Shown: piece by piece, positions 1 through 13,814 of the stretch
Layout of the letters: each line of letters begins with the position of its first letter
How positions within the stretch are numbered: the first letter of the stretch is position 1
From: a virus
Lineage: Duplodnaviria; Heunggongvirae; Uroviricota; Caudoviricetes
Length of the DNA stretch: 13,814 bases
Reading direction: 5' to 3' (one strand)
Virus record (IMG/VR): IMGVR_UViG_2778261465_000003
Location: 1-13,814 of that record
Notes under the pieces: generated by a model
Databases searched by the model: none
What the model was told of the DNA's origin: nothing
What the model saw: only the letters and a program-made list of their open reading frames with translations
Made by a program: the position numbers and the translations under genes

Positions 1-1074
1 TCATTTGTCGATTTCAATTTTGTCCCATTCCCGTCCACGGCTGTCCCTATACCGCGCCGCCATTGAATCTGATTTATGCCCGAGAAGACGTTGAGCAAAC
101 TTATCGCCAATCTGGTTCCGGTATAGCCTCGCTGACAGGCTACGCAGTTCATGGAATGTTGGCGGGTTTCCATCAAATGAGAGGCCAGATGCATTTCTCG
201 CCTTTGTAAAATACTTTGATACTGTTTTCGGGGAAAGCGGATCGTGATGCTTTGATGCGATTATAGTTTCACTGCTGCTGGCCTCCCTGCATTTCTGTAG
301 TGTATCAGCCAATGAGATATTGAGCGCGTCAATCGTTAGCGTTAGCGGAATGGCGAGTTTAGCCCCTGTTTTACTCTGTTTAATGTGAAGATGGTTGTCG
401 TTTATGTCTGACCATTTCATTCTGCACAAATCGCCGACTCTCTGCCCTGTAACGACGGCCAAATCCATCGCCAGCCTTAGCCAGATAGGGAGAGGTTCGG
501 CTGCATGGTAAATCTCGACATACTCATTAGCTGTCAGCCTTGAGCGCCTTACTTCTGACTTTGCTGTACGGGTTGCTGTTACCGGATTCGTTGCCACATG
601 CCCCTCGGCTATTGCTTCACGAAAAACGTCAACAAGGGTTGACCTGATTAATTTTGCGGAAGCTGCTTTACCTTCTGCTACGTAGGTGTTTAGCATTGCT
701 GCCACTTCTTTCGTTGATATGTCAGTGAGCGGTTTGTCCGGCAATTTTCTTCGGATTGCCCTGATTTTGCTGGCGTAGTCGAGTAGAGTTTTCGGCCTGA
801 TCCCCCTTTCGGTGAGGATTGTTTCATATCGGTCAAGCCACACATGAAGAGTGATTGCGTCACCGCCTTTAATTCTGTCTATTAGTGATTTGCGTCCGCT
901 GTCTGAGAGTAATTCAATATTGGCCTGTATTGCTTCAGTGATTGCTATCCTCCTGTCTCGGCCTAAACCAAACTCTTTACCCGTCCTTGGGTCCCTGTAG
1001 CAGTAATATCCATTGTTTCTTATATAAAGGTTAGGGGGTAAATCCCGGCGCTCATGACTTCGCCTTCTTCCCAT
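1..1074 (-). CDS. int: Phage integrase, tyrosine recombinase (lambda Int-like)
   Basis: 357-aa ORF, colinear with lambda Int as recalled: N-terminal arm-binding region MGRRRSHERRDLPPNLYIRNNGYYCYRDPRTGKEF and C-terminal catalytic region (HELRSLSARLY, LLGHKSD, ARYRD). Overlaps upstream xis by 23 nt as in lambda. Confidence 0.95.
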   Translation of the reverse strand: MGRRRSHERRDLPPNLYIRNNGYYCYRDPRTGKEFGLGRDRRIAITEAIQANIELLSDSGRKSLIDRIKGGDAITLHVWLDRYETILTERGIRPKTLLDYASKIRAIRRKLPDKPLTDISTKEVAAMLNTYVAEGKAASAKLIRSTLVDVFREAIAEGHVATNPVTATRTAKSEVRRSRLTANEYVEIYHAAEPLPIWLRLAMDLAVVTGQRVGDLCRMKWSDINDNHLHIKQSKTGAKLAIPLTLTIDALNISLADTLQKCREASSSETIIASKHHDPLSPKTVSKYFTKARNASGLSFDGNPPTFHELRSLSARLYRNQIGDKFAQRLLGHKSDSMAARYRDSRGREWDKIEIDK

Positions 1075-1270
1075 TTCTGATCCTCTTCAAAAGGCTACCT
1101 GTTACTGGTCGATTTAAGTCAACCTTTACCGCTGATTCGTGGAACAGATACTCTCTTCCATCCTTAACCGGAGGAGGGAATATCCTGCATTCGCGCACCC
1201 ATCGACGAACTGTTTCAAGGCTTCTTGGGCGTCGCTGGCGAGCGTTCCACTCCTGAAGTGTCAAGTACAT
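1052..1270 (-). CDS. xis: Excisionase (lambda Xis-like)
   Basis: Internal Met of track ORF 1052..1360 gives a 72-aa protein MYLTLQEWNARQRRPRSLETVRRWVRECRIFPPPVKDGREYLFHESAVKVDLNRPVTG, near-identical to lambda Xis as recalled. The 30 codons upstream in the track ORF are not Xis-like. Confidence 0.9.
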   Translation of the reverse strand: MYLTLQEWNARQRRPRSLETVRRWVRECRIFPPPVKDGREYLFHESAVKVDLNRPVTGSLLKRIRNGKKAKS

Positions 1271-1387
1271 CGCAAAGTCTCCGCAATTACACGCAAGAAA
1301 AAGCCGCATTGATGCGGCGATGGTAGGTCTGGATATCATTGAGCAATGAACAGGCCTCATCGAGTGTGAGGCGGTGTTATTTCATGG

Positions 1388-1648
1388 TTAGTCCTTGCGT
1401 AGCTCGCTGATTCTTCTGTAAGTCTCTGGTGCTTTGTTTCCGTGTATCTTCATTTCAGACTTCAACAGAGCAACGAGGGAATCCCATTCGTTGAGGATTC
1501 CTTTGAATGCCGGAACGCGCTTTGCAACCTTGTTGAATGAATCTCTGATTTCTGGAATCTGCTCAACAAGTGCAACGCATCGTCTGAAATCGGCTGCGTC
1601 ATGGGGAGCGCCGAAGTGATGACCATAGATATTCTTTTCAGTCCACAT
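1388..1648 (-). CDS. Hypothetical protein (86 aa), early-left accessory gene
   Basis: Track ORF with protein-like composition, immediately upstream of xis on the same strand. The overlapping alternative frame 1462..1758 begins inside a terminator hairpin. No family recognised. Confidence 0.5.
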   Translation of the reverse strand: MWTEKNIYGHHFGAPHDAADFRRCVALVEQIPEIRDSFNKVAKRVPAFKGILNEWDSLVALLKSEMKIHGNKAPETYRRISELRKD

Positions 1649-1744
1649 GCGATTGAGGCAAGAGTTGCGCTACTGATGCCGACATCGCCAGTCGATTGCC
1701 ATTTCAAAACCTTCATAGCCAAATCTGACATTTCTTGTCTCCAA

Positions 1745-1766
1745 TAAAAAACCGCCATCAGGCGGC
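1745..1766 (-). terminator. Intrinsic terminator (minus strand)
   Basis: Minus-strand reading GCCGCC-TGAT-GGCGGT (6-bp stem including one G.U) followed by six U; overlaps the stop codon of the 55-aa ORF. Confidence 0.5.
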
Positions 1767-1925
1767 TTGGTGTTCTTTCAGTTCTTCAATTCGAATATTG
1801 GTTACGTCTGCATGTGCTATCTGCGCCCATAGCATCCAGTGGTCATAGCAGTCATTGATGTTCTCTGCTTCGATAACTCTGTTGAATGGTTCTCCATTCC
1901 ATTCACCTGTGACTCGGAAGTGCAT
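1758..1925 (-). CDS. Small hypothetical protein (55 aa)
   Basis: Below the track threshold; translated by hand as MHFRVTGEWNGEPFNRVIEAENINDCYDHWMLWAQIAHADVTNIRIEELKEHQAA. GGAG Shine-Dalgarno 7 nt upstream of ATG; flanked by terminator hairpins on both sides. Confidence 0.35.
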   Translation of the reverse strand: MHFRVTGEWNGEPFNRVIEAENINDCYDHWMLWAQIAHADVTNIRIEELKEHQAA

Positions 1926-1936
1926 TTATCATCTCC

Positions 1937-1963
1937 ATAAAACAAAACTCGCCGTAGCGAGTT
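1937..1963 (-). terminator. Intrinsic terminator (minus strand) downstream of the DUF2513-like gene
   Basis: Perfect 7-bp stem AACTCGC / GCGAGTT with loop CGTA, followed on the minus strand by UUGUUUUAU. Confidence 0.45.
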
Positions 1964-2008
1964 CAGATATAATTTCCACCAAAGGCAGTAGTTGCTTGAT
2001 GCTAAGAA

Positions 2009-2437
2009 TTATTCAATATCTATTCCTGTAATATCTTTTATCTTTTTCCTTGCAAAGCCTTTTGCTAGTGATTTTGAAACACTCATAAGTGTACTAATTC
2101 CCTCATCCTTAAAGTTTGTTTTTATAGCTTGCCAGACATCCTTTTGACGTAAGTCAGCAATAAAATCATGCCCTCTTGCTGTCAACCTCAGTGGTACTTC
2201 GATCCAACTATATCCAACACCTTCCCCTAACGCTTTGGACATTATATGACCGAACCCAGGTTTTCCATCAACCCTGACTATTAATTCGTAGTCACATAAT
2301 AATCGCATATGGAAAATAAAATCTTGGTCATATCTATTAAAACCATTATCCTCTAGTTCACTAAGCATCGTGTCAGGGCCACGAGTTTTTTCGAATGCGA
2401 TAAGTAGATCTTTTAGATATTGCTGGTCTAATTTCAT
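2009..2437 (-). CDS. Hypothetical protein, possibly DUF2513-like (142 aa), AT-rich moron
   Basis: Track ORF with markedly lower GC than its neighbours (roughly mid-30s percent by eye). N-terminus MKLDQQYLKDLLIAFEK...YDQDFIFHMRLLCDYELIV resembles the DUF2513 pattern as recalled; weak assignment. Confidence 0.55.
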   Translation of the reverse strand: MKLDQQYLKDLLIAFEKTRGPDTMLSELEDNGFNRYDQDFIFHMRLLCDYELIVRVDGKPGFGHIMSKALGEGVGYSWIEVPLRLTARGHDFIADLRQKDVWQAIKTNFKDEGISTLMSVSKSLAKGFARKKIKDITGIDIE

Positions 2438-2465
2438 TGCCGCCTCCGTGACATGTCACAGAGAT

Positions 2466-2804
2466 TTATATCATTAATTTTGTTTCGTGCCAGCCTTTGG
2501 TCACCCAGCATTGTGAGTCACCATTACACGGGCATGAATTAACAGGAACTCTCTCGCCGCACTTACCGCAACGTTTTCTGCTGATCGATTTTATACGCCA
2601 GCGCACACGTGCATCATCCTGGCGGCTCAGTAACGCGATGTACTCACCAAACTCGCAAGGCGCACGCCTGAAGCGACGCGTGGCACAGTTACGCTCCAGC
2701 ATTTCAATTTCCTGAGCATCAAGTACAAGCTCCAGCTTACGCATACCGGATGATGCTTGCTTGGCTCTCTGATCGGCTTTGTGCTCTGTTGCTGATTTAG
2801 CCAT
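2466..2804 (-). CDS. Hypothetical Cys-rich protein (112 aa) with putative C-terminal zinc ribbon
   Basis: Track ORF; AGGAAA Shine-Dalgarno about 9 nt upstream of ATG at 2804. C-terminal CGKCGERVPVNSCPCNGDSQC (CxxC...CxC) and an N-terminal region with a possible ribbon-helix-helix-like beta strand (KLELVL). Confidence 0.5.
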   Translation of the reverse strand: MAKSATEHKADQRAKQASSGMRKLELVLDAQEIEMLERNCATRRFRRAPCEFGEYIALLSRQDDARVRWRIKSISRKRCGKCGERVPVNSCPCNGDSQCWVTKGWHETKLMI

Positions 2805-2848
2805 TCTGCTTTTCCTGCATCAGGAGAAAGACAATCATGGCGGCGCGG

Positions 2849-2944
2849 ATACTTCCGGTATCTTTTTACGCGATATTCCCCTTCAATGGCACATACAAAA
2901 AGAGAGCCATCCACAGGAGTGATTGAGGAATCGACAACCAGCAA
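2849..2944 (-). pseudogene. Relic of an S24 peptidase / repressor (UmuD, LexA, cI-type) C-terminal domain
   Basis: First about 32 codons of track ORF 2627..2944 (TTG start, stop immediately upstream) read LLVVDSSITPVDGSLFVCAIEGEYRVKRYRKY, resembling the UmuD core ([29 protein letters not shown]) and the lambda cI C-terminal domain as recalled. The rest of that ORF is out-of-frame overlap with the neighbouring gene. Confidence 0.4.
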
Positions 2945-2997
2945 CGCTTAATTATCTATAGTGTCGTATTTGCTTCATAAAATATGGCGAATAACAC

Positions 2998-3033
2998 AAA
3001 GCCCGCAGCAGCTCATTGTGCGGGCTTTTCTTA
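2998..3033. terminator. GC-rich hairpin, candidate bidirectional intrinsic terminator
   Basis: Perfect 10-bp inverted repeat AAAGCCCGCA / TGCGGGCTTT with an 11-nt loop, followed by TTTTCTT on the plus strand and a U-rich tract on the minus strand; sits between two minus-strand genes. Confidence 0.5.
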
Positions 3034-3097
3034 TACCTACTTCCTAGAGATAATTCTATGGAGGCATTAAATCAATACTGTCATTGGTAATATCATA

Positions 3098-3712
3098 TTA
3101 TCTAAAAGTCTTTCCACTTTTAACATCTAGGTATATTCTGTTCGACAACGTCATTCCTCCGCAATATGTGAAATAGATGTTTTCACCCTTATTGCTTGAT
3201 GCCATCCACCCTCCGATTTCCTTAAAATCGCTTTCCGTGCAGACCCCTTCATTTATTAACTTCCTAGCTGCCGAAGAAAACTCTTTTTTGTATATACGGT
3301 AGTCATCAGATCCTTTGATTAAAGTATCATCTCCGCTCGCATTTTCAGCAGGATCTGATGGCCTTTCACTGCTAAGATCACTAAGTTTAACCCATTCTGA
3401 AAACTTGCCATTAACGATTCCATTTTTTCTTGTGCAGGATTTATTACCTTCTTTAATATATTCGCTTTCCCCTCCAACACATGAGGCTGAATATGGCTCA
3501 GTTATACGAACCCATTCACCTTTTTTTTCTAGAAAATCTACGCCTTCCCTGAAAAATAGTTTCCCAGCCACTCCACATTTACTTGAAGGGCAGGTATGTC
3601 TTTCCGTTCGATCAACAACAACCCATAGTTTTGATTCATTTTTTGCCATTGCCGATGGTATTTGAGATGAGACAATTAACGTAAGCCCTAAAATTAGTAT
3701 TGATTTTTTCAT
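3098..3712 (-). CDS. Secreted Cys-rich protein of unknown function (204 aa, Sec signal peptide), AT-rich moron
   Basis: N-terminus MKKSILILGLTLIVSSQIPSAMA has a basic n-region, hydrophobic core and AxA cleavage motif. Six Cys in the mature part, consistent with periplasmic disulfides. Low GC; terminator hairpin downstream. Confidence 0.7.
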   Translation of the reverse strand: MKKSILILGLTLIVSSQIPSAMAKNESKLWVVVDRTERHTCPSSKCGVAGKLFFREGVDFLEKKGEWVRITEPYSASCVGGESEYIKEGNKSCTRKNGIVNGKFSEWVKLSDLSSERPSDPAENASGDDTLIKGSDDYRIYKKEFSSAARKLINEGVCTESDFKEIGGWMASSNKGENIYFTYCGGMTLSNRIYLDVKSGKTFR

Positions 3713-4010
3713 TGTAATTTCCTTTTACTTTTTACAAAGCGTTTAATCATGGCTGATTATCTCTAAGCGTAGTAACAGCCTTGTGCGAAACATGTTACCA
3801 AATCGCCATTTCAGTGTATCCGCAGTTAGGCTGCCACTTCAAGGATTCCTAATTACATGGTACGTAAGCGTAAAATCCCGTTGGTTGGCTGGTAATAACT
3901 CTGATCAAATCTCCCTTGTCTTTTGCTCTTACGTATGCAGCTCTTGTGTATTCAACCCAGGCCTCCAGTTCAGCAATACGCTTACTTCCATCCGAGATAA
4001 CACCTTCTAC

Positions 4011-4262
4011 TCACGCTGCTCGTTGAGTTTTGATTTTTGCTGTCTCCAGCTCAACACGCAGTTTCCCCACCGTTAGCGCAATATCCTCGTTCTCCTGGTC
4101 GCGGCGTTTGATGTATTGCTGGTTTCTTTCCCGTTCATCCAGCAGTGTCAGCACAATCGATGGTGTTACCAGCTCATGGAAAAGGTCCGCGTCAAATCCC
4201 CAGTTGTCATGCATTGCCTGCTCTGCCGCTTCACGCAGTGCCTGAGAGTGAATTACGCTCAC
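4011..4262 (-). CDS. Hypothetical protein (83 aa, GTG start), possibly truncated by an in-frame TGA
   Basis: Track ORF overlapping the upstream TraR-like gene by 4 nt (translational coupling). The same frame stays open for about 53 codons beyond the TGA, and a codon-matched antisense ORF (3783..4076) spans the junction. Confidence 0.45.
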   Translation of the reverse strand: MSVIHSQALREAAEQAMHDNWGFDADLFHELVTPSIVLTLLDERERNQQYIKRRDQENEDIALTVGKLRVELETAKIKTQRAA

Positions 4263-4480
4263 TTCGAACCTCTCTGTTTACTGATAAGCTCCAGATCTTC
4301 CTGGCAACTTGCACAAGTCCGACAACCCTGAACGGCCAGGCGTCTTCGCTCATCTATGGGATCGCCACACTCACAACAATGAGTGGCAGATACAGCCTGG
4401 TGGTTCAGGCGGCGCATTTTTATTGCTGTGTTGCGCTGTAATTCTTCAATTTCTGATGCTGAATCAATGATGTCTGCCAT
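4259..4480 (-). CDS. TraR/DksA family C4-type zinc-finger protein (73 aa)
   Basis: Motif CCECGDPIDERRRLAVQGCRTCASCQ (CxxC-x17-CxxC) near the C-terminus, typical of phage TraR/DksA-like proteins. Confidence 0.75.
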   Translation of the reverse strand: MADIIDSASEIEELQRNTAIKMRRLNHQAVSATHCCECGDPIDERRRLAVQGCRTCASCQEDLELISKQRGSK

Positions 4481-4534
4481 CTTCCATTAATCCCTGAATT
4501 GTTGGTTAATACGCTTGAGGATGAATGCGAACAA

Positions 4535-4556
4535 TAAAAAAGGAGCCTGTAGCTCC
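4535..4556 (-). terminator. Intrinsic terminator (minus strand)
   Basis: Minus-strand stem GGAGC / GCTCC with a 5-nt loop, followed by six U; 23 nt downstream of the gene ending at 4579. Confidence 0.5.
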
Positions 4557-4578
4557 CTGATGATTTTGCTTTTCATGT

Positions 4579-4794
4579 TCACCGTTCCTTAAAGACGCCG
4601 TTTAACATGCCGATCGCCAGGCTTAAATGAGTCGGTGTGAATCCCATCAGCGTTACCGTTTCGCGGTGCTTCTTTAGTACGCTACGGCAAATGTCATCGA
4701 CGTTTTTATCCGGAAACTGCTGTCTGGCTTTTTTGATTTCAGAATTAGCCTGACGGGCAATACTGCGAAGGGCGTTTTCCTGCTGATGTGTCAT
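4579..4794 (-). CDS. Hypothetical protein (71 aa from internal ATG; track ORF extends to 4860)
   Basis: Track ORF 4579..4860. The first 22 codons (MHFSGSGLHILCAYACRHGTCS) have no Shine-Dalgarno and odd composition, so the start at MTHQQENALRSIARQ... is preferred. Confidence 0.45.
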   Translation of the reverse strand: MTHQQENALRSIARQANSEIKKARQQFPDKNVDDICRSVLKKHRETVTLMGFTPTHLSLAIGMLNGVFKER

Positions 4795-4870
4795 TGAACA
4801 AGTCCCATGTCGGCAAGCATAAGCACACAGAATATGAAGCCCGCTGCCAGAAAAATGCATTCAGTGGTTG

Positions 4871-5062
4871 TCATACCTGGTCTCTCTCATCTGCTTCTGC
4901 TTTCGCCACCATCATTTCCAGCTTTTGTGAAAGGGATGCGGCTAACGTATGAAATTCTTCGTCTGTTTCTACTGGTATTGGCACAAACCTGACTCCAATT
5001 TGAGCGAGGCTATGTGCCATCTCAATGCTCGTTCTTAACTCAACAGGAGATGCTTTGTGCAT
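4871..5062 (-). CDS. Hypothetical protein (63 aa)
   Basis: Track ORF with a strong GGGGAG Shine-Dalgarno 4-5 nt upstream of ATG at 5062; acidic C-terminus. Confidence 0.5.
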   Translation of the reverse strand: MHKASPVELRTSIEMAHSLAQIGVRFVPIPVETDEEFHTLAASLSQKLEMMVAKAEADERDQV

Positions 5063-5176
5063 ACAGCTCCCCGTTTATTATTTATCTCCTCAGCCAGCCG
5101 CTGTGCTTTCAGGGGATTTCGGGTAACAGAAAGGCCGGGAAATACCCAGCCTCGCTTTGTAACGGAGTAGACGAAA

Positions 5177-5533
5177 GTGATCGCGCCTAACGGGGGCGGC
5201 GATTGGCAGGTTAAACCTGAACGTCGCAAGGCAGAACGAATCGACTACGAATCCTTCCTGAACGCCTACAACACCGAAGTCGGTGACAGACTTCCACACG
5301 CTGTTGCGGTCAACGAGAAACGAAAACGCCGCCTGAAGAAAATCATTCCGCAACTGAAAACGCCAAACGTGGACGGTTTCAGAGCGTATGTCAGGGCGTT
5401 TGTGCATCAGGCCAAGCCGTTTTACTTCGGAGACAACGACACGGGCTGGACGGCCGATTTTGATTACCTGCTGAGGGATGACTCGTTAACGGGGGTAACC
5501 GTACAGGTTTTACCTCGTCACGTGGCTTTCTGA
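5177..5533 (+). CDS. Possible C-terminal remnant of a phage replication-module protein (118 aa, GTG start)
   Basis: Protein-like ORF (...[25 protein letters not shown]) that begins directly after an in-frame stop with only GTG available. Tentative resemblance to the conserved C-terminal domain of phage replication proteins. The antisense ORFs 5090..5407 and 5035..5229 look like artefacts. Confidence 0.35.
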
Positions 5534-5885
5534 TGGCTGAAAGACGCTTTACCAGCTCGTCCATCGCCTGACTCGATGTATCGATGGTTCCGTTCTGAAT
5601 TGGTTCACGCATTTCATCCATGATTTCCAGCACCAGGCGGCGGTGATAGTTATCCGCGACCATTCCGGCATATCCCTTCAGGTTTGCGGCACTCGGGCAG
5701 TTTTTGCTGGTCATCAGGATTGACGTGAAATGCTCCTCTCCGCACGCCTCGGCAACCATCAGCGCGTCGATTAGGTTTCTGTTTCTCGCCTGCTTGCGGA
5801 TAACCTCGAAGGCTTTCCGGTAGAGCGGAATTGAAAACGCTTCCGGCTCCAGCGTTGCCAGAACGTCGCTGGCGGTTGGTGTTAA
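5500..5885 (-). pseudogene. DnaB-like replicative helicase N-terminal domain fragment, inverted relative to the nin/late genes
   Basis: Minus-strand translation ...[73 protein letters not shown]... is colinear with the E. coli DnaB N-terminal domain as recalled (...FYTRPHRHIF...LSKNTPSAANISAYADIVRERAVVREMI...). No ATPase domain is present; similarity is lost at about 5885. Confidence 0.55.
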
Positions 5886-6349
5886 AGGCAGCAGAGAAGA
5901 AACGACGACGAGAGGAGCAGAAACAGAAAGATAAACTTAAGATTCGAAAACTCGCCTTAAAGCCCCGCAGTTACTGGATTAAACAAGCCCAACAAGCCGT
6001 AAACGCCTTCATCAGAGAAAGAGACCGCGACTTACCATGTATCTCGTGCGGAACGCTCACGTCTGCTCAGTGGGATGCCGGGCATTACCGGACAACTGCT
6101 GCGGCGCCTCAACTCCGATTTGATGAACGCAATATTCACAAGCAATGCGTGGTGTGCAACCAGCACAAAAGCGGAAATCTCGTTCCGTATCGCGTCGAAC
6201 TGATTAACCGCATCGGGCAGGAAGCAGTAGACGAAATCGAATCAAACCATAACCGCCATCGCTGGACTGTCGAAGAGTGCAGGGCCATCAAGGCGGAGTA
6301 TCAACAGAAACTTAAAAAACTGCGAAACAGCAGAAGTGAGGCTGCATGA
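5831..6349 (+). CDS. ninG: NinG (Rap)-like recombination protein, N-terminus replaced or truncated
   Basis: From [56 protein letters not shown]... to the end it is colinear with lambda NinG as recalled. The first 18 residues ([21 protein letters not shown] start) are unrelated and lambda's N-terminal Cys-rich region is absent. Confidence 0.8.
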
Positions 6350-7017
6350 ATATCTACGAAAGAATTGATGGCAGCAAATACCGAAATATTTGGGTAGTTG
6401 GCGATCTGCACGGATGCTACACGAACCTGATGAACAAACTGGATACGATTGGATTCGACAACAAAAAAGACCTGCTTATCTCGGTGGGCGATTTGGTTGA
6501 TCGTGGTGCAGAGAACGTTGAATGCCTGGAATTAATCACATTCCCCTGGTTCAGAGCTGTACGTGGAAACCATGAGCAAATGATGATTGATGGCTTATCA
6601 GAGCGTGGAAACGTTAATCACTGGCTGCTTAATGGCGGTGGCTGGTTCTTTAATCTCGATTACGACAAAGAAATTCTGGCTAAAGCTCTTGCCCATAAAG
6701 CAGAAGAACTTCCGTTAATCATCGAACTGGTGAGCAAAGGTAAAAAATATGTCATCTGCCACGCCGATTATCCTTGTGACGAATACGAATTTGGAAAGCC
6801 AGTTGATCATCAGCAGGTAATCTGGAACCGCGAACGAATCAGCAACTCACAAGACGGGATCGTTAAAGAAATTAAAGGCGCGGACACGTTTATCTTTGGT
6901 CATACGCCAGCAGTGAAACCACTCAAATTTGCCAACCAGATGTATATCGATACTGGGGCAGTGTTCTGCGGAAATCTCACATTGATTCAGGTACAGGGAG
7001 AAGGCGCGTGGGCATAA
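6346..7017 (+). CDS. ninI: Ser/Thr protein phosphatase (lambda PPase, orf221/NinI-like metallophosphatase)
   Basis: 223 aa, near-identical to lambda phosphatase as recalled ([54 protein letters not shown]...GNHEQMM). GDLHG / GDLVDRG / GNHE metallophosphatase motifs; ATGA overlap with ninG. Confidence 0.95.
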
Positions 7018-7496
7018 GAGAACTAAACCTCACCAAAGAACAGCATGAGTGGCTGAATGGCTGGCTTGAACTGTGGGGCGCATGGGTTTATTCAGGTCGT
7101 CTGGAAAAGCGCATGAGCAGCGTAATAGCGAAGTTCATGGAGAGCGTAGAGCCGGGAAGAGTTATGACAAGGCCAATGTGTAATGATGATGATGGAATGT
7201 TGATTTCTCAGGTCGTCGATTCCGTCATGTACATTGACAAGAAAGCCTTTGGCATCCTCCTCAGCTACTACGCCCACGGCTCTTCCAAGCACGCCATTGC
7301 ATCTTACTATCATCGCGTCGCAAGACCTCGCAAGATGTTATGCCGGGGCGGCGGGCGCATTCAAAAACCATCGCTCGCAACCTGTCGACGGGAAGTTGAC
7401 GAAATCCTCAATGCCTCGTTGTTTATGATTTACCCGGTTCTGGATAGTGCGTTTAAAAACCGGAAACGTGTAGAGAAAATTAAACATGTAGCATAG
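7008..7496 (+). CDS. Q: Late-gene antiterminator Q (Phage_antitermQ family, Q21/Q82-like)
   Basis: 162 aa with WGAW near the N-terminus and the [13 protein letters not shown] motif typical of this Q family; sits just upstream of a promoter-like TTGACA and the lysis cassette. Start is a GTG overlapping the phosphatase stop. Confidence 0.85.
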
Positions 7497-7502
7497 AACG
7501 TG

Positions 7503-7540
7503 TTGACATCATTGAGCAAATGAGCAACACTATTCGCATA
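7503..7540 (+). promoter_or_regulatory. Candidate late promoter (pR'-like) and Q-utilisation region
   Basis: Consensus -35 TTGACA at 7503..7508, immediately after Q and upstream of a hairpin plus T-run. No convincing -10 at 17 +/- 1 bp, so the call rests on position and the -35 only. Confidence 0.3.
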
Positions 7541-7541
7541 A

Positions 7542-7583
7542 GCTGCCGTTAGTGACTCTTAAGTTGCAACGGTGGCTTTTTTT
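7542..7583 (+). terminator. Candidate tR'-like intrinsic terminator
   Basis: 9-bp stem GCTGCCGTT / AACGGTGGC (two G.U pairs) with a 17-nt loop, followed by seven T. The large loop makes this moderate. Confidence 0.4.
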
Positions 7584-7587
7584 ATTT

Positions 7588-7662
7588 GGGTCAGTCGTAT
7601 AAAGGTCATTACGGAAGGCTGTTAACCTTCTTATCGTGGTTCGAGTCCACGCTGTCCCGCCA
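7588..7662 (+). tRNA. tRNA-Asn (anticodon GUU)-like, one acceptor-stem mismatch
   Basis: Hand-folded cloverleaf: acceptor GGGTCAG / CTGTCCC (T.T at pair 4-69), D-loop AAAGGTCA, anticodon stem GAAGG / CCTTC, loop CTGTTAA (anticodon GTT), T-arm CGTGG-TTCGAGT-CCACG, discriminator G, encoded CCA. Anticodon and T loops match E. coli tRNA-Asn as recalled. Confidence 0.6.
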
Positions 7663-7667
7663 AATAT

Positions 7668-7743
7668 GCTGGTTTAGCTCCAATGGTAGAGCGGTCGCCT
7701 TGTAAGCGAATGGGTAGCGGTTCAAGTCCGTTAACCAGCACCA
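7668..7743 (+). tRNA. tRNA-Thr (anticodon UGU)-like
   Basis: Hand-folded cloverleaf: perfect 7-bp acceptor GCTGGTT / AACCAGC, D-arm GCTC-CAATGGTA-GAGC, anticodon stem GTCGC / GCGAA (27-43 mismatch), loop CTTGTAA (anticodon TGT), T-arm AGCGG-TTCAAGT-CCGTT, discriminator A, encoded CCA. Confidence 0.7.
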
Positions 7744-7861
7744 TAACTGAGCCGTAGCCACTGGATGTCCTGAATTCATCAGTGATAGTTATGCTGCGGT
7801 CTTCTTTTTCTCCCTTCCCAATATAAGAACTACGCAATCCGTTACTGGCGGAGGCGTTGCT

Positions 7862-8077
7862 ATGAAATCAATGGACAAAATCTCAACTGGCATTGCCTAC
7901 GGAACATCCGCTGGTAGTGCGGGATACTGGTTTTTGCAGTGGTTGGATCAGGTCAGTCCATCACAGTGGGCTGCGATTGGGGTGCTTGGAAGCCTTGTGT
8001 TGGGCTTTCTCACCTATCTGACAAATCTGTACTTCAAAATCAGAGAAGACAGAAGAAAGGCTGCGAGAGGTGAATAA
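7862..8077 (+). CDS. S: Class II holin (phage 21 S21-type pinholin) with dual-start motif
   Basis: 71 aa, [71 protein letters not shown], matches phage 21 S21 as recalled. Met1-Lys-Ser-Met4 gives antiholin and holin starts; two transmembrane segments. Confidence 0.95.
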
Positions 8078-8574
8078 TGCCTCCATCATTACGAAAAGCC
8101 GTTGCTGCGGCTATTGGTGGCGGGGCTATTGCTATAGCATCTGTGTTAATCACTGGCCCAAGTGGTAACGATGGTCTGGAAGGCGTCAGCTACATACCAT
8201 ATAAAGATATCGTTGGTGTATGGACTGTATGTTACGGGCATACCGGAAAAGACATTATGCTCGGTAAAACGTATACCAAAGCAGAATGCAAAGCCCTCCT
8301 GAATAAAGACCTTGCCACTGTCGCCAGACAAATTAACCCGTACATCAAAGTCGATATACCGGAAACAACGCGCGGCGCTCTTTACTCGTTCGTTTACAAC
8401 GTTGGTGCTGGAAATTTCAGAACATCGACGCTTCTTCGCAAAATAAACCAGGGCGATATCAAAGGCGCATGTGATCAGCTACGGCGCTGGACATACGCTG
8501 GCGGTAAGCAATGGAAAGGTCTCATGACTCGTCGTGAGATTGAGCGTGAAGTCTGTTTATGGGGGAAGCAATGA
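8077..8574 (+). CDS. R: SAR endolysin (phage 21 R21-like, T4-lysozyme fold)
   Basis: 165 aa. N-terminal signal-anchor-release domain rich in Gly/Ala ([20 protein letters not shown]) followed by a lysozyme domain ([18 protein letters not shown]...); matches phage 21 R as recalled. Start overlaps the holin stop. Confidence 0.95.
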
Positions 8575-8969
8575 AGATCCACTACAAGATAATTATCTTC
8601 GCGTTCGCGTTCGCATTGAGCGTACTGGGCGTCATCGTTTGGTCAGCAAGCCATTATCACGATAAGTATCAGGCGGAACGGCTACGCGCAGATGCTGCCG
8701 AGCAGAACGCCAACGCCGCCGAAGCGATCACCGCCAACGTCATTCGGTCTGTGAACATCATCAACGCCATTGCAGAGGCCAACCAGGATGCAAAGAACCA
8801 GATCACACTGGAGTCACAGGGAGCCCAAGCAGATATCAAAGTGGCTATTGAGAATGATGACTGCGCTCATCGGCCTGTGCCTCCTGCAACTGCTCACCGG
8901 CTGCGGCAATTCGCGGACAGTTTACGTACCGGTATCGGTAGTGCCTCTACCGGCAAACCTGACAGCTGA
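8571..8969 (+). CDS. Rz: i-spanin (Rz-like inner-membrane spanin)
   Basis: N-terminal transmembrane segment ([20 protein letters not shown]) then an Ala/Gln/Glu-rich periplasmic region; directly follows the endolysin; GGGGGAAG Shine-Dalgarno before ATG 8571 (track ORF starts at 8559). Confidence 0.8.
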
Positions 8970-9111
8970 GACGCAACAGCCAGCCATTCCCGAACCGCTG
9001 ACCTATGGGGCCAGTCTGGAGCTGAATGTTAGCCTGCTATCGGCGCTGGGTCAGTGCAACATCGATAAGGCTAGTATCAGGAAGATTGAAGAGTCTCGGA
9101 CCTCTCTGTAG
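8854..9111 (+). CDS. Rz1: o-spanin (Rz1-like outer-membrane lipoprotein), overlapped architecture
   Basis: +1 frame starting inside Rz: [17 protein letters not shown] with lipobox LTGC, then a Pro-rich mature region ([20 protein letters not shown]). Runs 142 nt past the Rz stop. Confidence 0.75.
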   Translation: MMTALIGLCLLQLLTGCGNSRTVYVPVSVVPLPANLTAETQQPAIPEPLTYGASLELNVSLLSALGQCNIDKASIRKIEESRTSL

Positions 9112-9147
9112 AAGACTATTTTGCTGCCATGAAGAAGCTTTATATCT

Positions 9148-9177
9148 TTGGTCAATACATCGAACAGATCAGATAAT
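9148..9177 (+). promoter_or_regulatory. Candidate sigma70 promoter for the protease gene
   Basis: TTGGTC, 18-bp spacer, GATAAT in the AT-rich spacer after Rz1, about 55 nt upstream of the protease ATG. Confidence 0.35.
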
Positions 9178-9231
9178 TCTTATGTGATTGATGCTATATT
9201 TATCCCCTATTTAAACATGGGAGTTACGGAT

Positions 9232-10032
9232 ATGTCTGTCAGTCAAGATATTTATAAGTCTACACTTAGAGTTGAAAGTGATACTCCAGAGGGAACCTCG
9301 GTAGGAACTGCTTTCTGGTTTTGCTTTGTTATGGAAGGTGGTGAAGATATTGTTCCACTCTTGGTAACTAATAAGCATGTTGTTAACGGGGCAACAGAAG
9401 TTAGACTACGTCTAAACATTACCGACAGCGCAAATCCTGAGATAAAATTTTATAACCTAACAATTTCAGAGGGGGCAAATGCGTTCATTATGCACCCTGA
9501 TGATAATGTTGATATATGCATATTGCCTATCGCTGGATTGCTGAATGAGATGGAGAAAAGTGGCATTAGCCCAGAACTCTTCTTTTTCACAGATCGTCAG
9601 ATGCGTGGTAACAATTACATTACTCCTGTCGAAGATGTTTACATGACAGGATATCCAAATGGATTATGGGATTCTGTAAACAATAGGCCTGTTACCAGGA
9701 AAGGCATCACAGCATCATCACCTATGGAAAACTGGAAGGGTAAGCCTGAATTCCTCATTGATATGGCTTGTTTCGGTGGTTCTAGCGGTTCTCCCGTTTA
9801 TATAATGAACCAAGGCTCATATGCTACTAATGATGGTATTGCTATGGGGGAGAGATTAATTTTCCTTGGGTTGTTGTATGCAGGGCCAGTAACGAATGTT
9901 AGCGGGAATATTGAAATTATTGACGTACCAACAGTCGCTACACCAGTTGTGCGTTCTGAAATTACAATGAATCTCGGATTTGTTATTAAAGCAGAGAAGC
10001 TAAATGACTTTAAGCCTCTCTTGGGGATTTAA
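9232..10032 (+). CDS. Cytoplasmic trypsin-like serine protease (chymotrypsin fold, Trypsin_2-like), AT-rich accessory gene
   Basis: 266 aa from ATG 9232 (GGGAG Shine-Dalgarno 8 nt upstream; track ORF starts at a TTG at 9148). Catalytic triad in canonical order and context: His in LLVTNKHVV, Asp in DDNVDICILPIAG, Ser in GGSSGSPVY. No signal peptide or transmembrane segment. GC clearly lower than the flanking phage genes. Confidence 0.75.
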   Translation: MSVSQDIYKSTLRVESDTPEGTSVGTAFWFCFVMEGGEDIVPLLVTNKHVVNGATEVRLRLNITDSANPEIKFYNLTISEGANAFIMHPDDNVDICILPIAGLLNEMEKSGISPELFFFTDRQMRGNNYITPVEDVYMTGYPNGLWDSVNNRPVTRKGITASSPMENWKGKPEFLIDMACFGGSSGSPVYIMNQGSYATNDGIAMGERLIFLGLLYAGPVTNVSGNIEIIDVPTVATPVVRSEITMNLGFVIKAEKLNDFKPLLGI

Positions 10033-10037
10033 CACAA

Positions 10038-10059
10038 GCCGCCTCCGGACGGTTTTTTT
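10038..10059 (+). terminator. Possible weak intrinsic terminator after the protease gene
   Basis: Imperfect GC hairpin (CCGCC..GGACGG) followed by seven T, beginning 6 nt after the protease stop. Confidence 0.4.
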
Positions 10060-10071
10060 ATTGCTATTACA

Positions 10072-10097
10072 AAAGCCACTCCATGCCGAGTGGCTTT
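10072..10097. repeat. Perfect 10-bp inverted repeat (stem-loop)
   Basis: AAAGCCACTC-catgcc-GAGTGGCTTT. Could be a minus-strand terminator (short U tract follows on that strand) or a protein or RNA structural site. Confidence 0.5.
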
Positions 10098-10165
10098 GAT
10101 AATGGCTTATACCCTACACGGGATAACTTAACTGATATCCCAACAAGCGGATAAAGAGGTTCTCA

Positions 10166-10291
10166 ATGTCCGACATCTACCAAATCATGTTAACCACCCA
10201 AACAGGCGAAACCTTTACGGGTAAGATGTCACGACGTCAGCGTGAGCTGGTTAATGGCTTTATGCAGCCGGCTACCGAGATGGGCGAGTAG
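10166..10291 (+). CDS. Small hypothetical protein (41 aa)
   Basis: Below track threshold; MSDIYQIMLTTQTGETFTGKMSRRQRELVNGFMQPATEMGE, with AAGAGG Shine-Dalgarno 6 nt upstream of ATG. Confidence 0.35.
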   Translation: MSDIYQIMLTTQTGETFTGKMSRRQRELVNGFMQPATEMGE

Positions 10292-10380
10292 AATAACTCC
10301 ATTAGGAGAATGTGGAACCATTACACTTTGAGCCGTTAACTGATATTGATAAAGGTAAATAATATCGTGGTTAAGGTTTT

Positions 10381-10653
10381 CTAATAGCCAGCCATTTGCA
10401 AAATCACAGTTGCAGCAGCAGCGAAAGCTGCATATGAGTTATATTTAGACTGTAACCGCGCAGTTAAGAAAAATTCGTGAAGATCTACATTTTTTTGGGG
10501 ATCATCAAATGTAATTGCTACAACGGTGCTTCTACCTGTTTTGACTTTGGCTGTTGCTGATTTGATCCATAACCCAGCCGATAAAAAACCAAAGAAAATT
10601 GATAGTGTATGATGGTCAATTAACCAGTTTTTAATTAGTAATAAATCACTCAT
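10381..10653 (-). CDS. Small hydrophobic (putative membrane) protein, about 90 aa, AT-rich
   Basis: Track ORF 10381..10698, start taken at internal ATG 10653 because the track start lies inside terS. One clear hydrophobic segment (LSIFFGFLSAGLWI) and a hydrophobic C-terminus. An open frame this long is unlikely by chance in AT-rich DNA. Convergent with the protease unit. Confidence 0.45.
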   Translation of the reverse strand: MSDLLLIKNWLIDHHTLSIFFGFLSAGLWIKSATAKVKTGRSTVVAITFDDPQKNVDLHEFFLTARLQSKYNSYAAFAAAATVILQMAGY

Positions 10654-10677
10654 TTTCAATCCAATTGAGACTTTGCC

Positions 10678-11229
10678 ATGGCACTCACCGACAAACAAGA
10701 AATGTTCTGTCGCGAGTACCTCATCGATTTAAACGCCACACAAGCGGCTATTCGGGCGGGGTACAGCGCAAAGACAGCCAACCGTACTGCGTCCGAAAAC
10801 ATGTCAAAACCTGACATCAAGTTAAGAATCGCTGAACTGAAAGCGCAACGCAATGATCTTGTTGGTATTAATGCAGAATATGTACTTAATCGCCTTCTTG
10901 AAATCGACCAGATGGATGTGCTTGACATTCTCCTGCAAAACGGTGAGCTAAAACCCATTAAAGACTGGCCTAAGGTATGGCGCACAACGCTATCAGGAAT
11001 GGATGTCGTGGAGATGGTATCCGCAGATAGCGCCGCACTTCTGAAGAAAATCAAATGGCCTGATAAGGTTAAAAATCTTGAGTTGCTTGGGCGTCATGTT
11101 TCTGTTCAGGCGTTTAAAGACAATGTCAAAAATGAAGTGACTGGCGCTGATGGAGGACCAGTCAGAACAGAAATTACCAACTTAACGCCGGAGCAGGCTG
11201 CAGAGGCGTATAGAAAAATGATGGGCTAA
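10678..11229 (+). CDS. Terminase small subunit (Terminase_2-like, N-terminal helix-turn-helix)
   Basis: 183 aa; N-terminal [57 protein letters not shown] is characteristic of phage TerS; immediately followed by the large subunit. Confidence 0.85.
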
Positions 11230-11231
11230 GT

Positions 11232-12194
11232 ATGCCGTTACCATTCCCCTTCGATTTTAAACATCCTGATTACCAGATGGTTTTTGAATGGCGGATGGAA
11301 CGCCTACAGCGCATTCGCCAGAATCCTGAAATATTGCCCGTGTTGAAGCAGTTTTACCGAACCAATCCGGCTCAGTTCATCATCGACTGGGGCATGACAA
11401 CGGACCCGCGTAATATTGATTATGGCCTGCCGGTAACCATTCCGTTTTTACTCTTCCCTAAGCAGGAGGAGTGGATCCACTGGATTATGGAACGCTGGAG
11501 CAATCGGGAGAATGGTATTACCGAAAAATCCCGTGAAATGGGGCTCAGTTGGACCGCGATCGGACTGGCCTGCTCGCTTTGTCTCTTCAACAAAGAAATG
11601 GTTATCGGTTTCGGCTCCCGTAAAGAGGAATACGTCGACAGCACCGGTGACCCGAAAGCATTGTTCTGGAAGGCGCGCAAGTTCGTGGAAACACTACCTG
11701 TAGAGTTTCGCGGTTCGTGGAGCGAGAAGAAGCACGCGCCATATATGCGTGTTGAGTTTCCTGAAACTGGTGCCGTTATCAAAGGCGAGGCTGGCGATAA
11801 TATTGGTCGTGGTGACCGTACCACGCTTTATCTGGTTGATGAGGCTGCATTCCTTCAGCGTCCTCTGCTGATTGATGCGGCGTTGTCACAAACGACGCGT
11901 TGCCGTATTGACCTGAGTTCAGTTAACGGCATGGCGAACCCGTTCGCTCAGAAGCGTCATGGCGGGAAGATACCGGTATTCACATTCCACTGGCGGGATG
12001 ATCCTCGCAAGGATGAAGAGTGGTATCGCAGGGAATGCGAGAAAATCGATAATCCGGTGGTGGTGGCACAGGAACTTGATCTGAACTACAGCGCATCAGC
12101 GGAAGGCGTCCTGATTCCATCCGAATGGGTACAGGCTGCCGTTGATGCGCATATCAAACTGGGTATGGTGCTGTTTCTAATGTTACCGGTGTAA
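11232..12194 (+). CDS. Terminase large subunit, ATPase domain only (C-terminal nuclease domain missing)
   Basis: 320 aa with a Walker-B-like [10 protein letters not shown] and TerL-like N-terminal half, but far shorter than an intact TerL of this type, which is usually well over 400 aa. The ORF ends in a short non-homologous tail where another frame takes over. Confidence 0.8.
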
Positions 12195-12724
12195 CCCGCC
12201 ACAAACTCTATGAAAACGATAATGGTTCGGAGGACGGTAACGGGTTACCGCCACACTCTGTTGCTGTAATTGTGGATGGCGGTGATGTGACGGATATTGC
12301 TCAGGCTATCAGAGGGAATAAAGGCCAGGGAACAGCCACTCACGGTACAACATCCGTTACGGTTCCGGATAAATACGGCAATCCCCATGTAATCAAATTT
12401 TCGCGTTCCAGTGATGTGCCTGTTTATGCCCGGATTAAATTAAAAGTTTTTACGGGTTATACCTCACAGATAGGGCAGCAGATCCAGCAGGCTATTTCCG
12501 ACTATATCAATAGTCTGATGATTGGTGATTCGGTCCTTTTAAGTCGCATTTACTCACCGGCGAATCTTGGCGTGGTGAGTGGCGGGAATGCACGCTATTA
12601 CGATATTCAGGAACTGACGATTGGGAAATCCCCGGGGGCTTTGTCGTCATCAAACATTGATATCAGATACAACGAATCTGCGTCCTGTACCCCGGAAAAT
12701 ATCGTTATAACGGTGGAGTCATGA
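12146..12724 (+). pseudogene. Baseplate-J-like protein, C-terminal fragment (e14 JayE-like), no proper start
   Basis: Frame open from 12146, overlapping the TerL tail; only a GTG at 12272 is available. Tentatively resembles the C-terminal part of baseplate J family proteins; ATGA-coupled to the downstream tail gene. Confidence 0.5.
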
Positions 12725-13401
12725 GCAAATACACCGAACTAATCACGAACTACCACGCCACCAAACCTAAATTTCTTGCACATGTTGATCTGATGACCCG
12801 GCCGCTTATTGATGTTGCGGCTGCCACCAGAGGGCTGATTACTGCATTTGATATTGACTCTGCGGTTGGTGTGCAACTTGACATTCTGGGATTGTGGATC
12901 GGACGTAGCCGTGTTGTCAGCCAGCCTATTTCAGGTGTCTATTTCAGCTGGGATACCGACGGGCTTGGATATGATCAGGGTGTATGGCAGGGGCCATACG
13001 ATCCTGATTCCGGATACATGTACCTCAGCGATGAAACTTATCGTGTCATCCTTAAAGCGAAGATTGCGATTAATAACTGGGACGGACGGAATGATTCGCT
13101 TCCGGCAATTCTTGACGCGGCAACAGCAGGATCCGGACTGCGAATGCAGATAGTCGATAACCAGGACATGACGATATCGGTCTGGGTCTTTCCTGATACT
13201 GATATTTCAGATGTATCGCGTGAGTTAATTGCGGCAATTAAACAGGGGTATCTCACAGTAAAAGCCGCCGGGGTATGGGCGGGTGGCATTGAAACACCTT
13301 CGGTGGAAACCCCATCGGAAGGCTCAAAATTTTTTGGTTTTGATATGGATAACGAATTCATCAGTGGTTTTGATGTAGGAGCATGGGGAGTATTACTCTG
13401 A
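12721..13401 (+). CDS. Phage tail/baseplate protein, DUF2313 (YmfQ / Mu gp48-like)
   Basis: 226 aa; resembles E. coli e14 YmfQ-type tail proteins as recalled; translationally coupled on both sides. Confidence 0.65.
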
Positions 13402-13814
13402 TGGCGAAAAATGACTTTAAAGCGTTTGCAACGGATCGAAATGCCAATGTTATATCGCAGGAGAAATGGGAAGCGTTGCCCGCGCTTTTATCTGGATTTA
13501 CAGCAGGGAAAGCCTCCAGTGCGCAAGTCAATAAGGTTATTCGGCAGGCCAGCTTTATTGCTGCAGCTCTGGCCCAGTTTGTAAGTGATAAAACGCAACG
13601 GGATGTGCTTGATAATGGTGATCTGCCCGGTTTTGTTGAATTGCTGGGATCGGGGTTTGCTGTTGAATACCTGAGCCGCAAGAATCCGTTTGGCGATATC
13701 AAATCGGATGGCACGGTGAAAACGGCTCTCGAAAACCTTGGTTTGGGAGAAGCGGCTAAAAGGAATGTAGGGACAGGGGCGAATCAGATACCTGATATGG
13801 GTAGCTTCACGCTT
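13401..13814 (+). CDS. Side tail fibre protein, N-terminal part (continues beyond the window)
   Basis: ATG at 13401 overlapping the upstream stop, GGGGAG Shine-Dalgarno; [60 protein letters not shown]... is typical of a tail-fibre N-terminal anchor region. Open to the window end. Confidence 0.7.

Follow-up and report, generated by a model that had tools for sequence, protein, structure and literature searches.

A mismatched tRNA-Asn/tRNA-Thr pair in a lambdoid late operon as a probable source of nuclease-resistant replacement tRNAs

Why should a lambdoid prophage keep, at the head of its late operon, two tRNA genes whose stems are imperfectly paired? The question is raised by a tRNA-Asn(GUU) gene and a tRNA-Thr(UGU) gene in a 13,814-bp stretch of viral DNA (hereafter the window; Caudoviricetes, IMG/VR record IMGVR_UViG_2778261465_000003, positions 1 to 13,814). 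An original prediction made from the sequence alone had suggested that the two tRNAs might support translation of AT-rich accessory genes and that the Asn copy was perhaps decaying or of altered identity. Both genes, and their pairing, are already known. The 156-bp pair is 100% identical to that of Shigella phage SfI and 98-99% identical to those of phage 21, Sf6, BTP1 and many Salmonella P22-like phages, where the genes are annotated as tRNA-Asn and tRNA-Thr. The SfI genome paper noted two tRNA genes downstream of Q and described the tRNA-Asn as being of unclear importance (PMC3636060). Of 5426 complete E. coli genomes, 347 (about 6%) carry the cassette, as do a few plasmid or phage-plasmid records. 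The genes being ordinary and annotated, the value of re-examining them is interpretive: the Thr mismatch is a published means by which lambdoid phages survive the P2 OLD nuclease, and taken as a whole the evidence makes it probable that the cassette serves as a source of nuclease-resistant replacement tRNAs, for Thr by analogy with the phage 21 and HK446 copies and for Asn by inference from what follows.

Two intact tRNA genes with retained mismatches

ARAGORN called exactly two tRNA genes in the 13.8-kb window, both on the plus strand: tRNA-Asn(GUU) at 7588-7662 (75 nucleotides, G73) and tRNA-Thr(UGU) at 7668-7743 (76 nucleotides, A73), separated by a 5-nucleotide spacer. Rfam recovered the same two genes as full-length matches to the RF00005 model, with 55.3 bits for Asn (E = 7e-10) and 61.2 bits for Thr (E = 2e-11); the gathering score of this model is 29, and both matches are far above chance level. 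The two programs agree on the two adjacent genes, both of which have encoded CCA ends (Asn ...GUCCC-G-CCA, CCA at 7660-7662; Thr ...CCAGC-A-CCA, CCA at 7741-7743), and ARAGORN assigned the anticodons and isotypes that had been predicted. A permissive Rfam scan of 7480-7870 returned no RNA family beyond the two tRNAs.

Both genes have the features of canonical elongator tRNAs, namely a 7-nucleotide anticodon loop with U33 and a purine at 37, a T-loop of the form GGUUCRAnUCC and GG in the D-loop. The anticodon loops, CUGUUAA in Asn and CUUGUAA in Thr, are each identical to that of the host counterpart. Asn has a 4-nucleotide variable loop and a full 5-bp anticodon stem (GAAGG/CCUUC). The Thr anticodon arm reads GUCGC-CUUGUAA-GCGAA, so that in its stem (GUCGC/GCGAA) a U28-A42 pair stands beside a G27.A43 mismatch. 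The non-canonical-pair line of cmscan and explicit numbering confirmed both mismatches described earlier, the T.T in the Asn acceptor stem as U4.U69 and that at Thr pair 27-43 as G27.A43, and revealed a second Asn mismatch absent from the earlier description, U13.U22 in the D-stem. Minimum free energy folding of the single sequences recovered no cloverleaf for Thr and, for Asn, no more than its anticodon and T arms (z about -1.5 to -1.7), so structure was judged from the covariance model and from counts of covariation.

Covariation was counted in a survey of 119 viral and 30 genomic loci, found with a D-arm pattern independent of the anticodon arm and with tRNAs re-called in all. Six Thr stem pairs were changed on both sides among 18 distinct cassette variants, the variants being related by descent so that their counts, here and below, do not equal independent events. 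The Thr acceptor stem alone occurs as GCUGGUU/AACCAGC, GCCGGCU/AGCCGGC, GCUGUUU/AAACAGC, GCCGACU/AGUCGGC and GCCAGCU/AGCUGGC, and 94.7% of cells were paired across the Thr variants, compared with 21-47% when the partner was slid. Position 27.43 was unpaired in every one of these 18 variants and 28-42 was U-A in 17. For Asn, with 19 distinct variants, pairs 6-67, 7-66 and 28-42 were changed on both sides and 89.7% of cells were paired; 13.22 was unpaired in all 19 and 4.69 in 18, as U.U or, where position 69 is mutated, as U.C. In a divergent Asn lineage (surveyed loci L119, L123, L142 and L151) the D, anticodon and T arms are all different and the cassette acceptor stem is kept, with a U.U mismatch at 4.69 (U.C in L142).

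In E. coli the Asn identity set consists of the anticodon GUU and G73 (PMC9976931). G34, U35, U36 and G73 are all present in the window Asn, whose status as a substrate of asparaginyl-tRNA synthetase is read from the sequence. The idea that the Asn copy is decaying or altered in identity found no support, since it is identical in phage 21, Sf6, BTP1, ST64T and HK446, has compensated stems, keeps the 4.69 mismatch in all but one variant and retains both GUU and G73. Decay of either gene is thus not supported, and the pattern of substitutions suggests that the mismatches are conserved features.

Probable replacement tRNAs and the Toprim nucleases

The Thr mismatch has a published counterpart. 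Prophage P2 encodes a Toprim nuclease, OLD, for which lambda Gam is the trigger. It kills via host tRNA-Thr(UGU), in which it cleaves paired CNG motifs (28-30 and 40-42) after their C; phage tRNA-Thr(UGU) genes make good the loss and so rescue the cell (Govande et al., NAR 2025, PMC12445682). Resistance requires an altered motif and a shortened anticodon stem together, and arm swaps in tRNA-Thr6, another phage tRNA, identified the anticodon arm as the main determinant (PMC12445682). The phage 21 tRNA-Thr21, which has A26, a shorter stem and C28U/G42A, protects from P2-OLD and resists cleavage (PMC12445682). Strong counter-defence by the HK446 Thr(UGU) is an independent finding (bioRxiv 10.64898/2026.07.10.737580), and supplying more host thrU does not give the protection that the phage tRNA gives (PMC12445682; bioRxiv 10.64898/2026.07.10.737580).

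Alignment showed the HK446 Thr sequence to be identical to that of Thr21, and the window Thr to be identical to both save for G26 in place of A26, a form shared with SfI and found in 25 of 109 surveyed cassette loci. The window anticodon arm is identical to that of the two protective tRNAs, with the motif UCG/CGA, as opposed to CUG/CAG in the host, corresponding to the same C28U/G42A change. The window Thr thus combines the three features of the OLD-resistant class, a host-identical UGU loop, an altered CNG motif and a shortened stem. By analogy with these copies, the mismatch at 27-43 is not damage but would be counted among the published determinants of OLD resistance.

PARIS AriB, a related Toprim nuclease, cuts the Lys(UUU), Thr(UGU) and Asn(GUU) tRNAs at 40|41 within U36AAUC|A, with U39, N41 and U16 as determinants (PMC12409363). 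All of these are changed in the window Thr, which has UAAGCG where the host has UAAUCA, and A16 in the D-loop CAAUGGUA (host, AGUAGGUA). The virulent phage T5 offers a parallel: its Lys(UUU)/Thr(UGU)/Asn(GUU) set, which neutralises PARIS AriB, includes the same two isoacceptors, and these too are substituted at U39, near the 40|41 cleavage position and within the D-loop. It differs in that T5 carries about 25 tRNAs, including the key Lys(UUU) that the window cassette lacks, and the sequences are not close relatives; against OLD, the T5 Thr gives only partial rescue (bioRxiv 10.64898/2026.07.10.737580). Another enzyme, the anticodon-loop nuclease HepS of Gifsy-1, which cuts Thr, Ile and Ser tRNAs, was set aside because the phage anticodon loops are host-identical, from which no protection is predicted. 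A nuclease-resistant replacement tRNA, as shown for the phage 21 and HK446 copies, is the best-supported reading of the cassette Thr and by analogy would apply to the window copy. OLD-evading HK446 has the cassette, and OLD-sensitive HK97, HK75 and HK542 have no tRNA in their Q-to-lysis regions; this correlation is small and confounded, as HK446 also encodes the OLD inhibitor Oad2.

The following sequence of events would account for these observations. The late promoter pR' would be constitutive, with transcription ending at tR' unless the antiterminator Q21 permits read-through. Since they lie directly after pR'/tR', the tRNAs would be the first products of the late transcript and abundant only when Q21 antiterminates, and RNase P together with 3' trimming would presumably release them. 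Where nucleases of rival elements, such as P2 OLD or PARIS AriB, cut the anticodon stem of host tRNA-Thr(UGU), translation would stop at ACA codons. The phage Thr, in which the anticodon loop is kept, the C28/G42 cleavage motif is lost, U39 and A41 are both replaced by G and the stem is shortened by G27.A43, would survive, so that ACA decoding could continue for ACA-rich phage genes. The Asn would most likely be a second spare, for the host tRNA-Asn(GUU), a secondary target of both nucleases.

[quoted passage not shown] Because of these host data, the pairing of Asn with Thr matches the shared secondary and primary targets of the two Toprim tRNases. The host asnT/U/V/W genes have UAAUCC, CGG/CCG and U16, compared with UAACCU, AAG/CUU and A16 in the window Asn (D-loop AAAGGUCA; host, AGUCGGUA). 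The window Asn is therefore changed at every mapped AriB determinant (U39, N41 and U16), although ancestry alone could explain these differences. Its paired CNG motif is gone while its stem is still a full 5 bp. Loss of the motif was rejected as a universal feature of such Asn genes, since a Mulock-type lineage has CAG/CUG. In the literature on the phage-21-type Asn tRNA, no published test of resistance was found.

Several points weigh against a role of the cassette in nuclease evasion. The experiments were performed with A26 copies of Thr and the window copy has G26, a single-base difference that falls outside the anticodon arm. Thr(UGU) by itself does not rescue lambda and does not relieve OLD toxicity in recB cells, and the escape of HK446 has been credited mainly to the protein Oad2 (bioRxiv 10.64898/2026.07.10.737580). 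Late-operon tRNAs appear after the early trigger of OLD, and the window prophage is without any gam-type trigger. Because the cassette has no tRNA-Lys(UUU), the main AriB target, it cannot suffice against PARIS. The comparable pair of phage P1 is host-like at the determinants, its Thr having CUG/CAG and a full 5-bp stem and its Asn UAAUCA, and was for that reason rejected as independent support. As for the putative spare role of Asn, which is argued by analogy, the tRNAs listed as depleted by OLD do not include it (bioRxiv 10.64898/2026.07.10.737580), and the Mulock-type lineage, from Klebsiella phages, has a paired CAG/CUG motif. A foreign tRNA would differ at 39 and 41 fairly often through ancestry, so the Asn substitutions, read from sequence comparison, would count as weak evidence.

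A more far-reaching proposal, that the cassette is a minimal and horizontally mobile two-tRNA "anti-tRNase kit" in which Asn is a second resistant spare and the 4.69 mismatch was selected against a nuclease or modifying enzyme yet to be named, is put forward tentatively, as somewhat doubtful. The role of Asn bears on whether temperate phages, like T5, possess resistant tRNAs in matched sets. The cassette may also influence prophage induction or superinfection in strains with P2-like or PARIS defences.

Codon supply and other explanations

Under the strongest alternative, the tRNAs would do no more than supplement decoding of ACA, a rare codon in E. coli, and of AAY codons in late and AT-rich genes, with no nuclease role. 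The ileZ-argN-argO genes of Stx-converting lambdoid phages, which likewise lie between Q/pR' and the late genes, are in the classical view providers of decoders for rare codons. They encode Ile and Arg isoacceptors of unrelated sequence, and are not known to have a nuclease-resistance role. In the 23 open reading frames (ORFs) of the window, ACA makes up 33.5% of Thr codons (17 per 1000), rising to 44% in three AT-rich accessory ORFs; the AT-rich 294-codon ORF downstream of the lysis genes alone has 10 ACA and 24 Asn codons, an unusually high content of both. Moreover, the host makes tRNA-Thr(UGU) from the single gene thrU, and the tRNAs head the most strongly transcribed operon. In SfI, ACA usage is 17.3 compared with 7.1 in the host, and no Asn codon bias was seen (PMC3636060). 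The proposed help to AT-rich accessory genes is thus partly supported, for ACA but not for Asn, whose codons are not enriched overall (43 per 1000) and for which the host has four asn genes. Mere supply is also at odds with the failure of extra host thrU to protect where the phage tRNA does, and gives no rationale for an invariant 27.43 mismatch and a U28-A42 pair that are kept amid compensatory changes. Pure codon supplementation is therefore considered unlikely, if still worth weighing. Codon supply and nuclease evasion are not mutually exclusive: since they use ACA heavily, these phages would gain from extra tRNA-Thr(UGU) and also suffer most from its destruction, and it is plausible that supply and counter-defence are two mutually reinforcing sides of one ACA dependence.

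It is very improbable that the Asn copy, or perhaps both genes, are nonfunctional leftovers stranded between Q and the lysis genes. The three stem mismatches (4.69 and 13.22 in Asn, 27.43 in Thr) might suggest such a fate, as might the degraded state of the surrounding prophage and the second gene of ST64T and PS3, which has turned into an aberrant tRNA-like sequence with a 4-nucleotide anticodon loop. Relics would hardly score 55-61 bits against the tRNA model or stay nearly identical in Escherichia, Shigella and Salmonella phages, their stems showing compensatory changes on both sides around mismatches that are themselves conserved; furthermore, the Thr of phage 21 and HK446, differing from the window copy only at N26, is biologically active, and the BTP1 transcriptome described below hints at expression. 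Pseudogene decay was rejected on the scores, the compensatory changes and the conserved mismatches.

Even less probable is compensation for a host tRNA gene broken by prophage integration, as proposed for HK446 in the 2026 preprint. Integration into tRNA genes is common among lambdoid and P22-like phages, and SfI uses thrW; thrW, however, encodes Thr(CGU) rather than Thr(UGU), and int is over 6 kb away from the cassette, which sits within the late operon and behind a terminator. It is common to phages with different Q, holin and early-region modules, its genes are only distant relatives of host thrU and asn, and two different tRNAs are carried jointly. This explanation was rejected on the position, the module sharing and the thrW anticodon. 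An RNA-processing or recombination module, in which RNase P or RNase E cuts would free the Q-loading leader and stabilise the lysis mRNA or the 267 bp would serve as a patch of homology, fits a conserved block (7538 to about 7805) flanked by unrelated promoters, Q genes and holins, but is dismissed as equally improbable, because such roles need none of the intact anticodons, identity elements, CCA ends and compensatory stems that are seen, the biological activity that has been measured belongs to a decoding tRNA, and HK97, HK75 and HK542 manage without the cassette.

The late control region, the prophage remnant and related loci

Coordinates bore out the predicted location, downstream of Q and pR' and ahead of the holin. 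A Q21-type late antiterminator gene, whose product has 162 residues, lies at 7008-7496 on the plus strand (full-length match to PHROG 943, "anti-termination protein Q-like", at E = 5e-90); the phage 21 record calls it an antiterminator, and E. coli loci with the identical sequence label it "antiterminator Q family protein". The late promoter pR' (7503-7538, plus strand) is base for base that of phage 21 by alignment, and its elements, placed by shifting the coordinates of the curated record OL657228 (phage 21) by 5899, are the -35 box TTGACA at 7503-7508, the Q-binding elements ATTGAGCA and AATGAGCA within 7511-7526, the -10 box at 7526-7531 and a transcription start at 7538, all on the plus strand. 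The intrinsic terminator tR', a leader hairpin followed by a U-run at 7540-7587 (plus strand), stops one base before tRNA-Asn. Its hairpin has a folding free energy of -20.2 kcal/mol (z -4.75), and none of 200 shuffled sequences was equally stable. The phage 21 and Sf6 records label it a terminator, and it is identical in the window, phage 21, Sf6, BTP1 and ST64T; the whole promoter-to-terminator stretch is identical, base for base, to that of phage 21. A simple promoter and terminator scan of 7300-8000 was empty and uninformative, as it missed even the experimentally known pR' and tR', and the curated phage 21 annotation and folding were relied upon instead.

Downstream of tRNA-Thr, folding predicted a long hairpin at 7749-7803 followed by a U-run (7749-7812, plus strand). 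The hairpin is kept across phages, with conservation extending to about 7805 among phages with differing holins, and had z values of -2.2 in the window, -4.8 in phage 21, -3.0 in Sf6 and -5.2 in HK446; in the surveyed loci it was placed at 1850-1916 (L001), 1803-1860 (L002) and 5259-5315 (HK446, L162). The U-run is present in phage 21 and the window only, and two substitutions weaken the window hairpin. No Rfam family matched the hairpin. It is possibly a second terminator or a processing or stability element, and might halt polymerase that has leaked past tR' ahead of the lysis genes. The first protein-coding gene of the late operon 3' of the tRNAs encodes an S21-type class II holin, or pinholin (7862-8077, plus strand; matches to holin families of PHROG at E = 3e-35; annotated in phage 21 as S21 antiholin/pinholin), and is followed by a signal-anchor-release (SAR) endolysin gene at 8077-8574 and an Rz spanin gene at 8559-8969. 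In the BTP1 lysogen, the transcriptome paper excludes "the two tRNA genes" from its list of prophage genes above 100 transcripts per million, which hints at expression or accumulation of both tRNAs in lysogen cultures.

The prophage in the window is a cut-down lambdoid element. An integrase gene (1-1074, minus strand), an excisionase gene and accessory genes precede a junction near 5189, where a DnaB-like fragment lies on the minus strand (5391-5759); beyond it the order is NinG, truncated at the N-terminus, then NinI, Q, both tRNA genes, the lysis genes, the AT-rich ORF and the small terminase gene, with a 320-residue fragment of the large terminase at 11232-12194. No recombination (gam), immunity/repressor or replication module was found among the window genes, complete E. 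coli genomes cover the window to 43% at most, and the junction (5170-5212) had no match in species-representative genomes. The prophage is thus a deletion remnant, in which the cassette is probably inherited baggage, yet intact. The 294-residue ORF (9148-10032, plus strand; 40% GC) directly 3' of the Rz spanin gene encodes a peptidase domain of the trypsin-like type (PF13365, E = 2e-10), and its match to PDC-S45, a defence candidate of PADLOC, has E = 1e-100. It resembles a defence-type moron in a lysis-terminase hotspot.

The closest relatives of the cassette, in phage 21, SfI, Sf6, BTP1 and HK446, share its genes, their order, the 5-nucleotide spacer and the place between tR' and holin; the window Thr, like that of SfI, has G26 instead of A26, and the window holds a prophage remnant rather than an intact phage. 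The conserved and mobile unit runs for 267 bp from the first transcribed base, 7538, to the hairpin end near 7805, and is joined to differing Q/promoter types and holins. In HK446 it stands behind a lambda-type tR', with ARAGORN placing Asn at 5098-5172 and Thr at 5178-5253; the 2026 preprint (bioRxiv 10.64898/2026.07.10.737580) describes HK446 as a single-tRNA phage, whereas ARAGORN finds the Asn gene too. The P1/P7/D6 pair, from temperate enterobacterial phages, has the same isoacceptors in the same order with a 2-nucleotide spacer. Its Thr gene is 81% identical to that of the cassette and its Asn gene is unrelated in sequence, and it lies 3' of C1-controlled ban promoters rather than of a Q-dependent late promoter.

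In 98 surveyed loci the array consists simply of the two genes, Asn and Thr. Extended arrays built around the cassette (L007, L008 and other viral loci in L012-L130) comprise Asn-Phe(GAA)-Thr-Arg(UCU), either alone or together with Gly(UCC), as well as Asn-Thr-Arg and Asn-Thr-Gly. In prophages the Gly(UCC) genes nearly copy host glyT but carry A38G and, in some, G39U as well; Gly(UCC) is among the OLD targets in the 2026 preprint (bioRxiv 10.64898/2026.07.10.737580). One Asn-Thr-Gly(UCC) array (L125, 1279-1512) has a chimeric Thr, cassette-type at nucleotides 1-25 and identical to E. coli thrU at 26-76, a composition that implies recombination between phage and host genes and, as judged from the exchanged segment, loss of the resistance features. 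The second gene of ST64T and PS3 (L006, 781-849) scored 42 bits as tRNA-like with no ARAGORN call, and is either a degenerate Thr gene or an element with another role. Finally, the unusual D-arm of the cassette Thr, UUAGCUCCAAUGGnAGAGC with C at position 14, was also found in cellular genes for Campylobacterota tRNA-Trp and Actinomycetota tRNA-Thr (L131-L160), and the P1 record gives its Thr gene 87% identity to Campylobacter jejuni; these matches are a possible clue to a non-enterobacterial origin of the cassette Thr.

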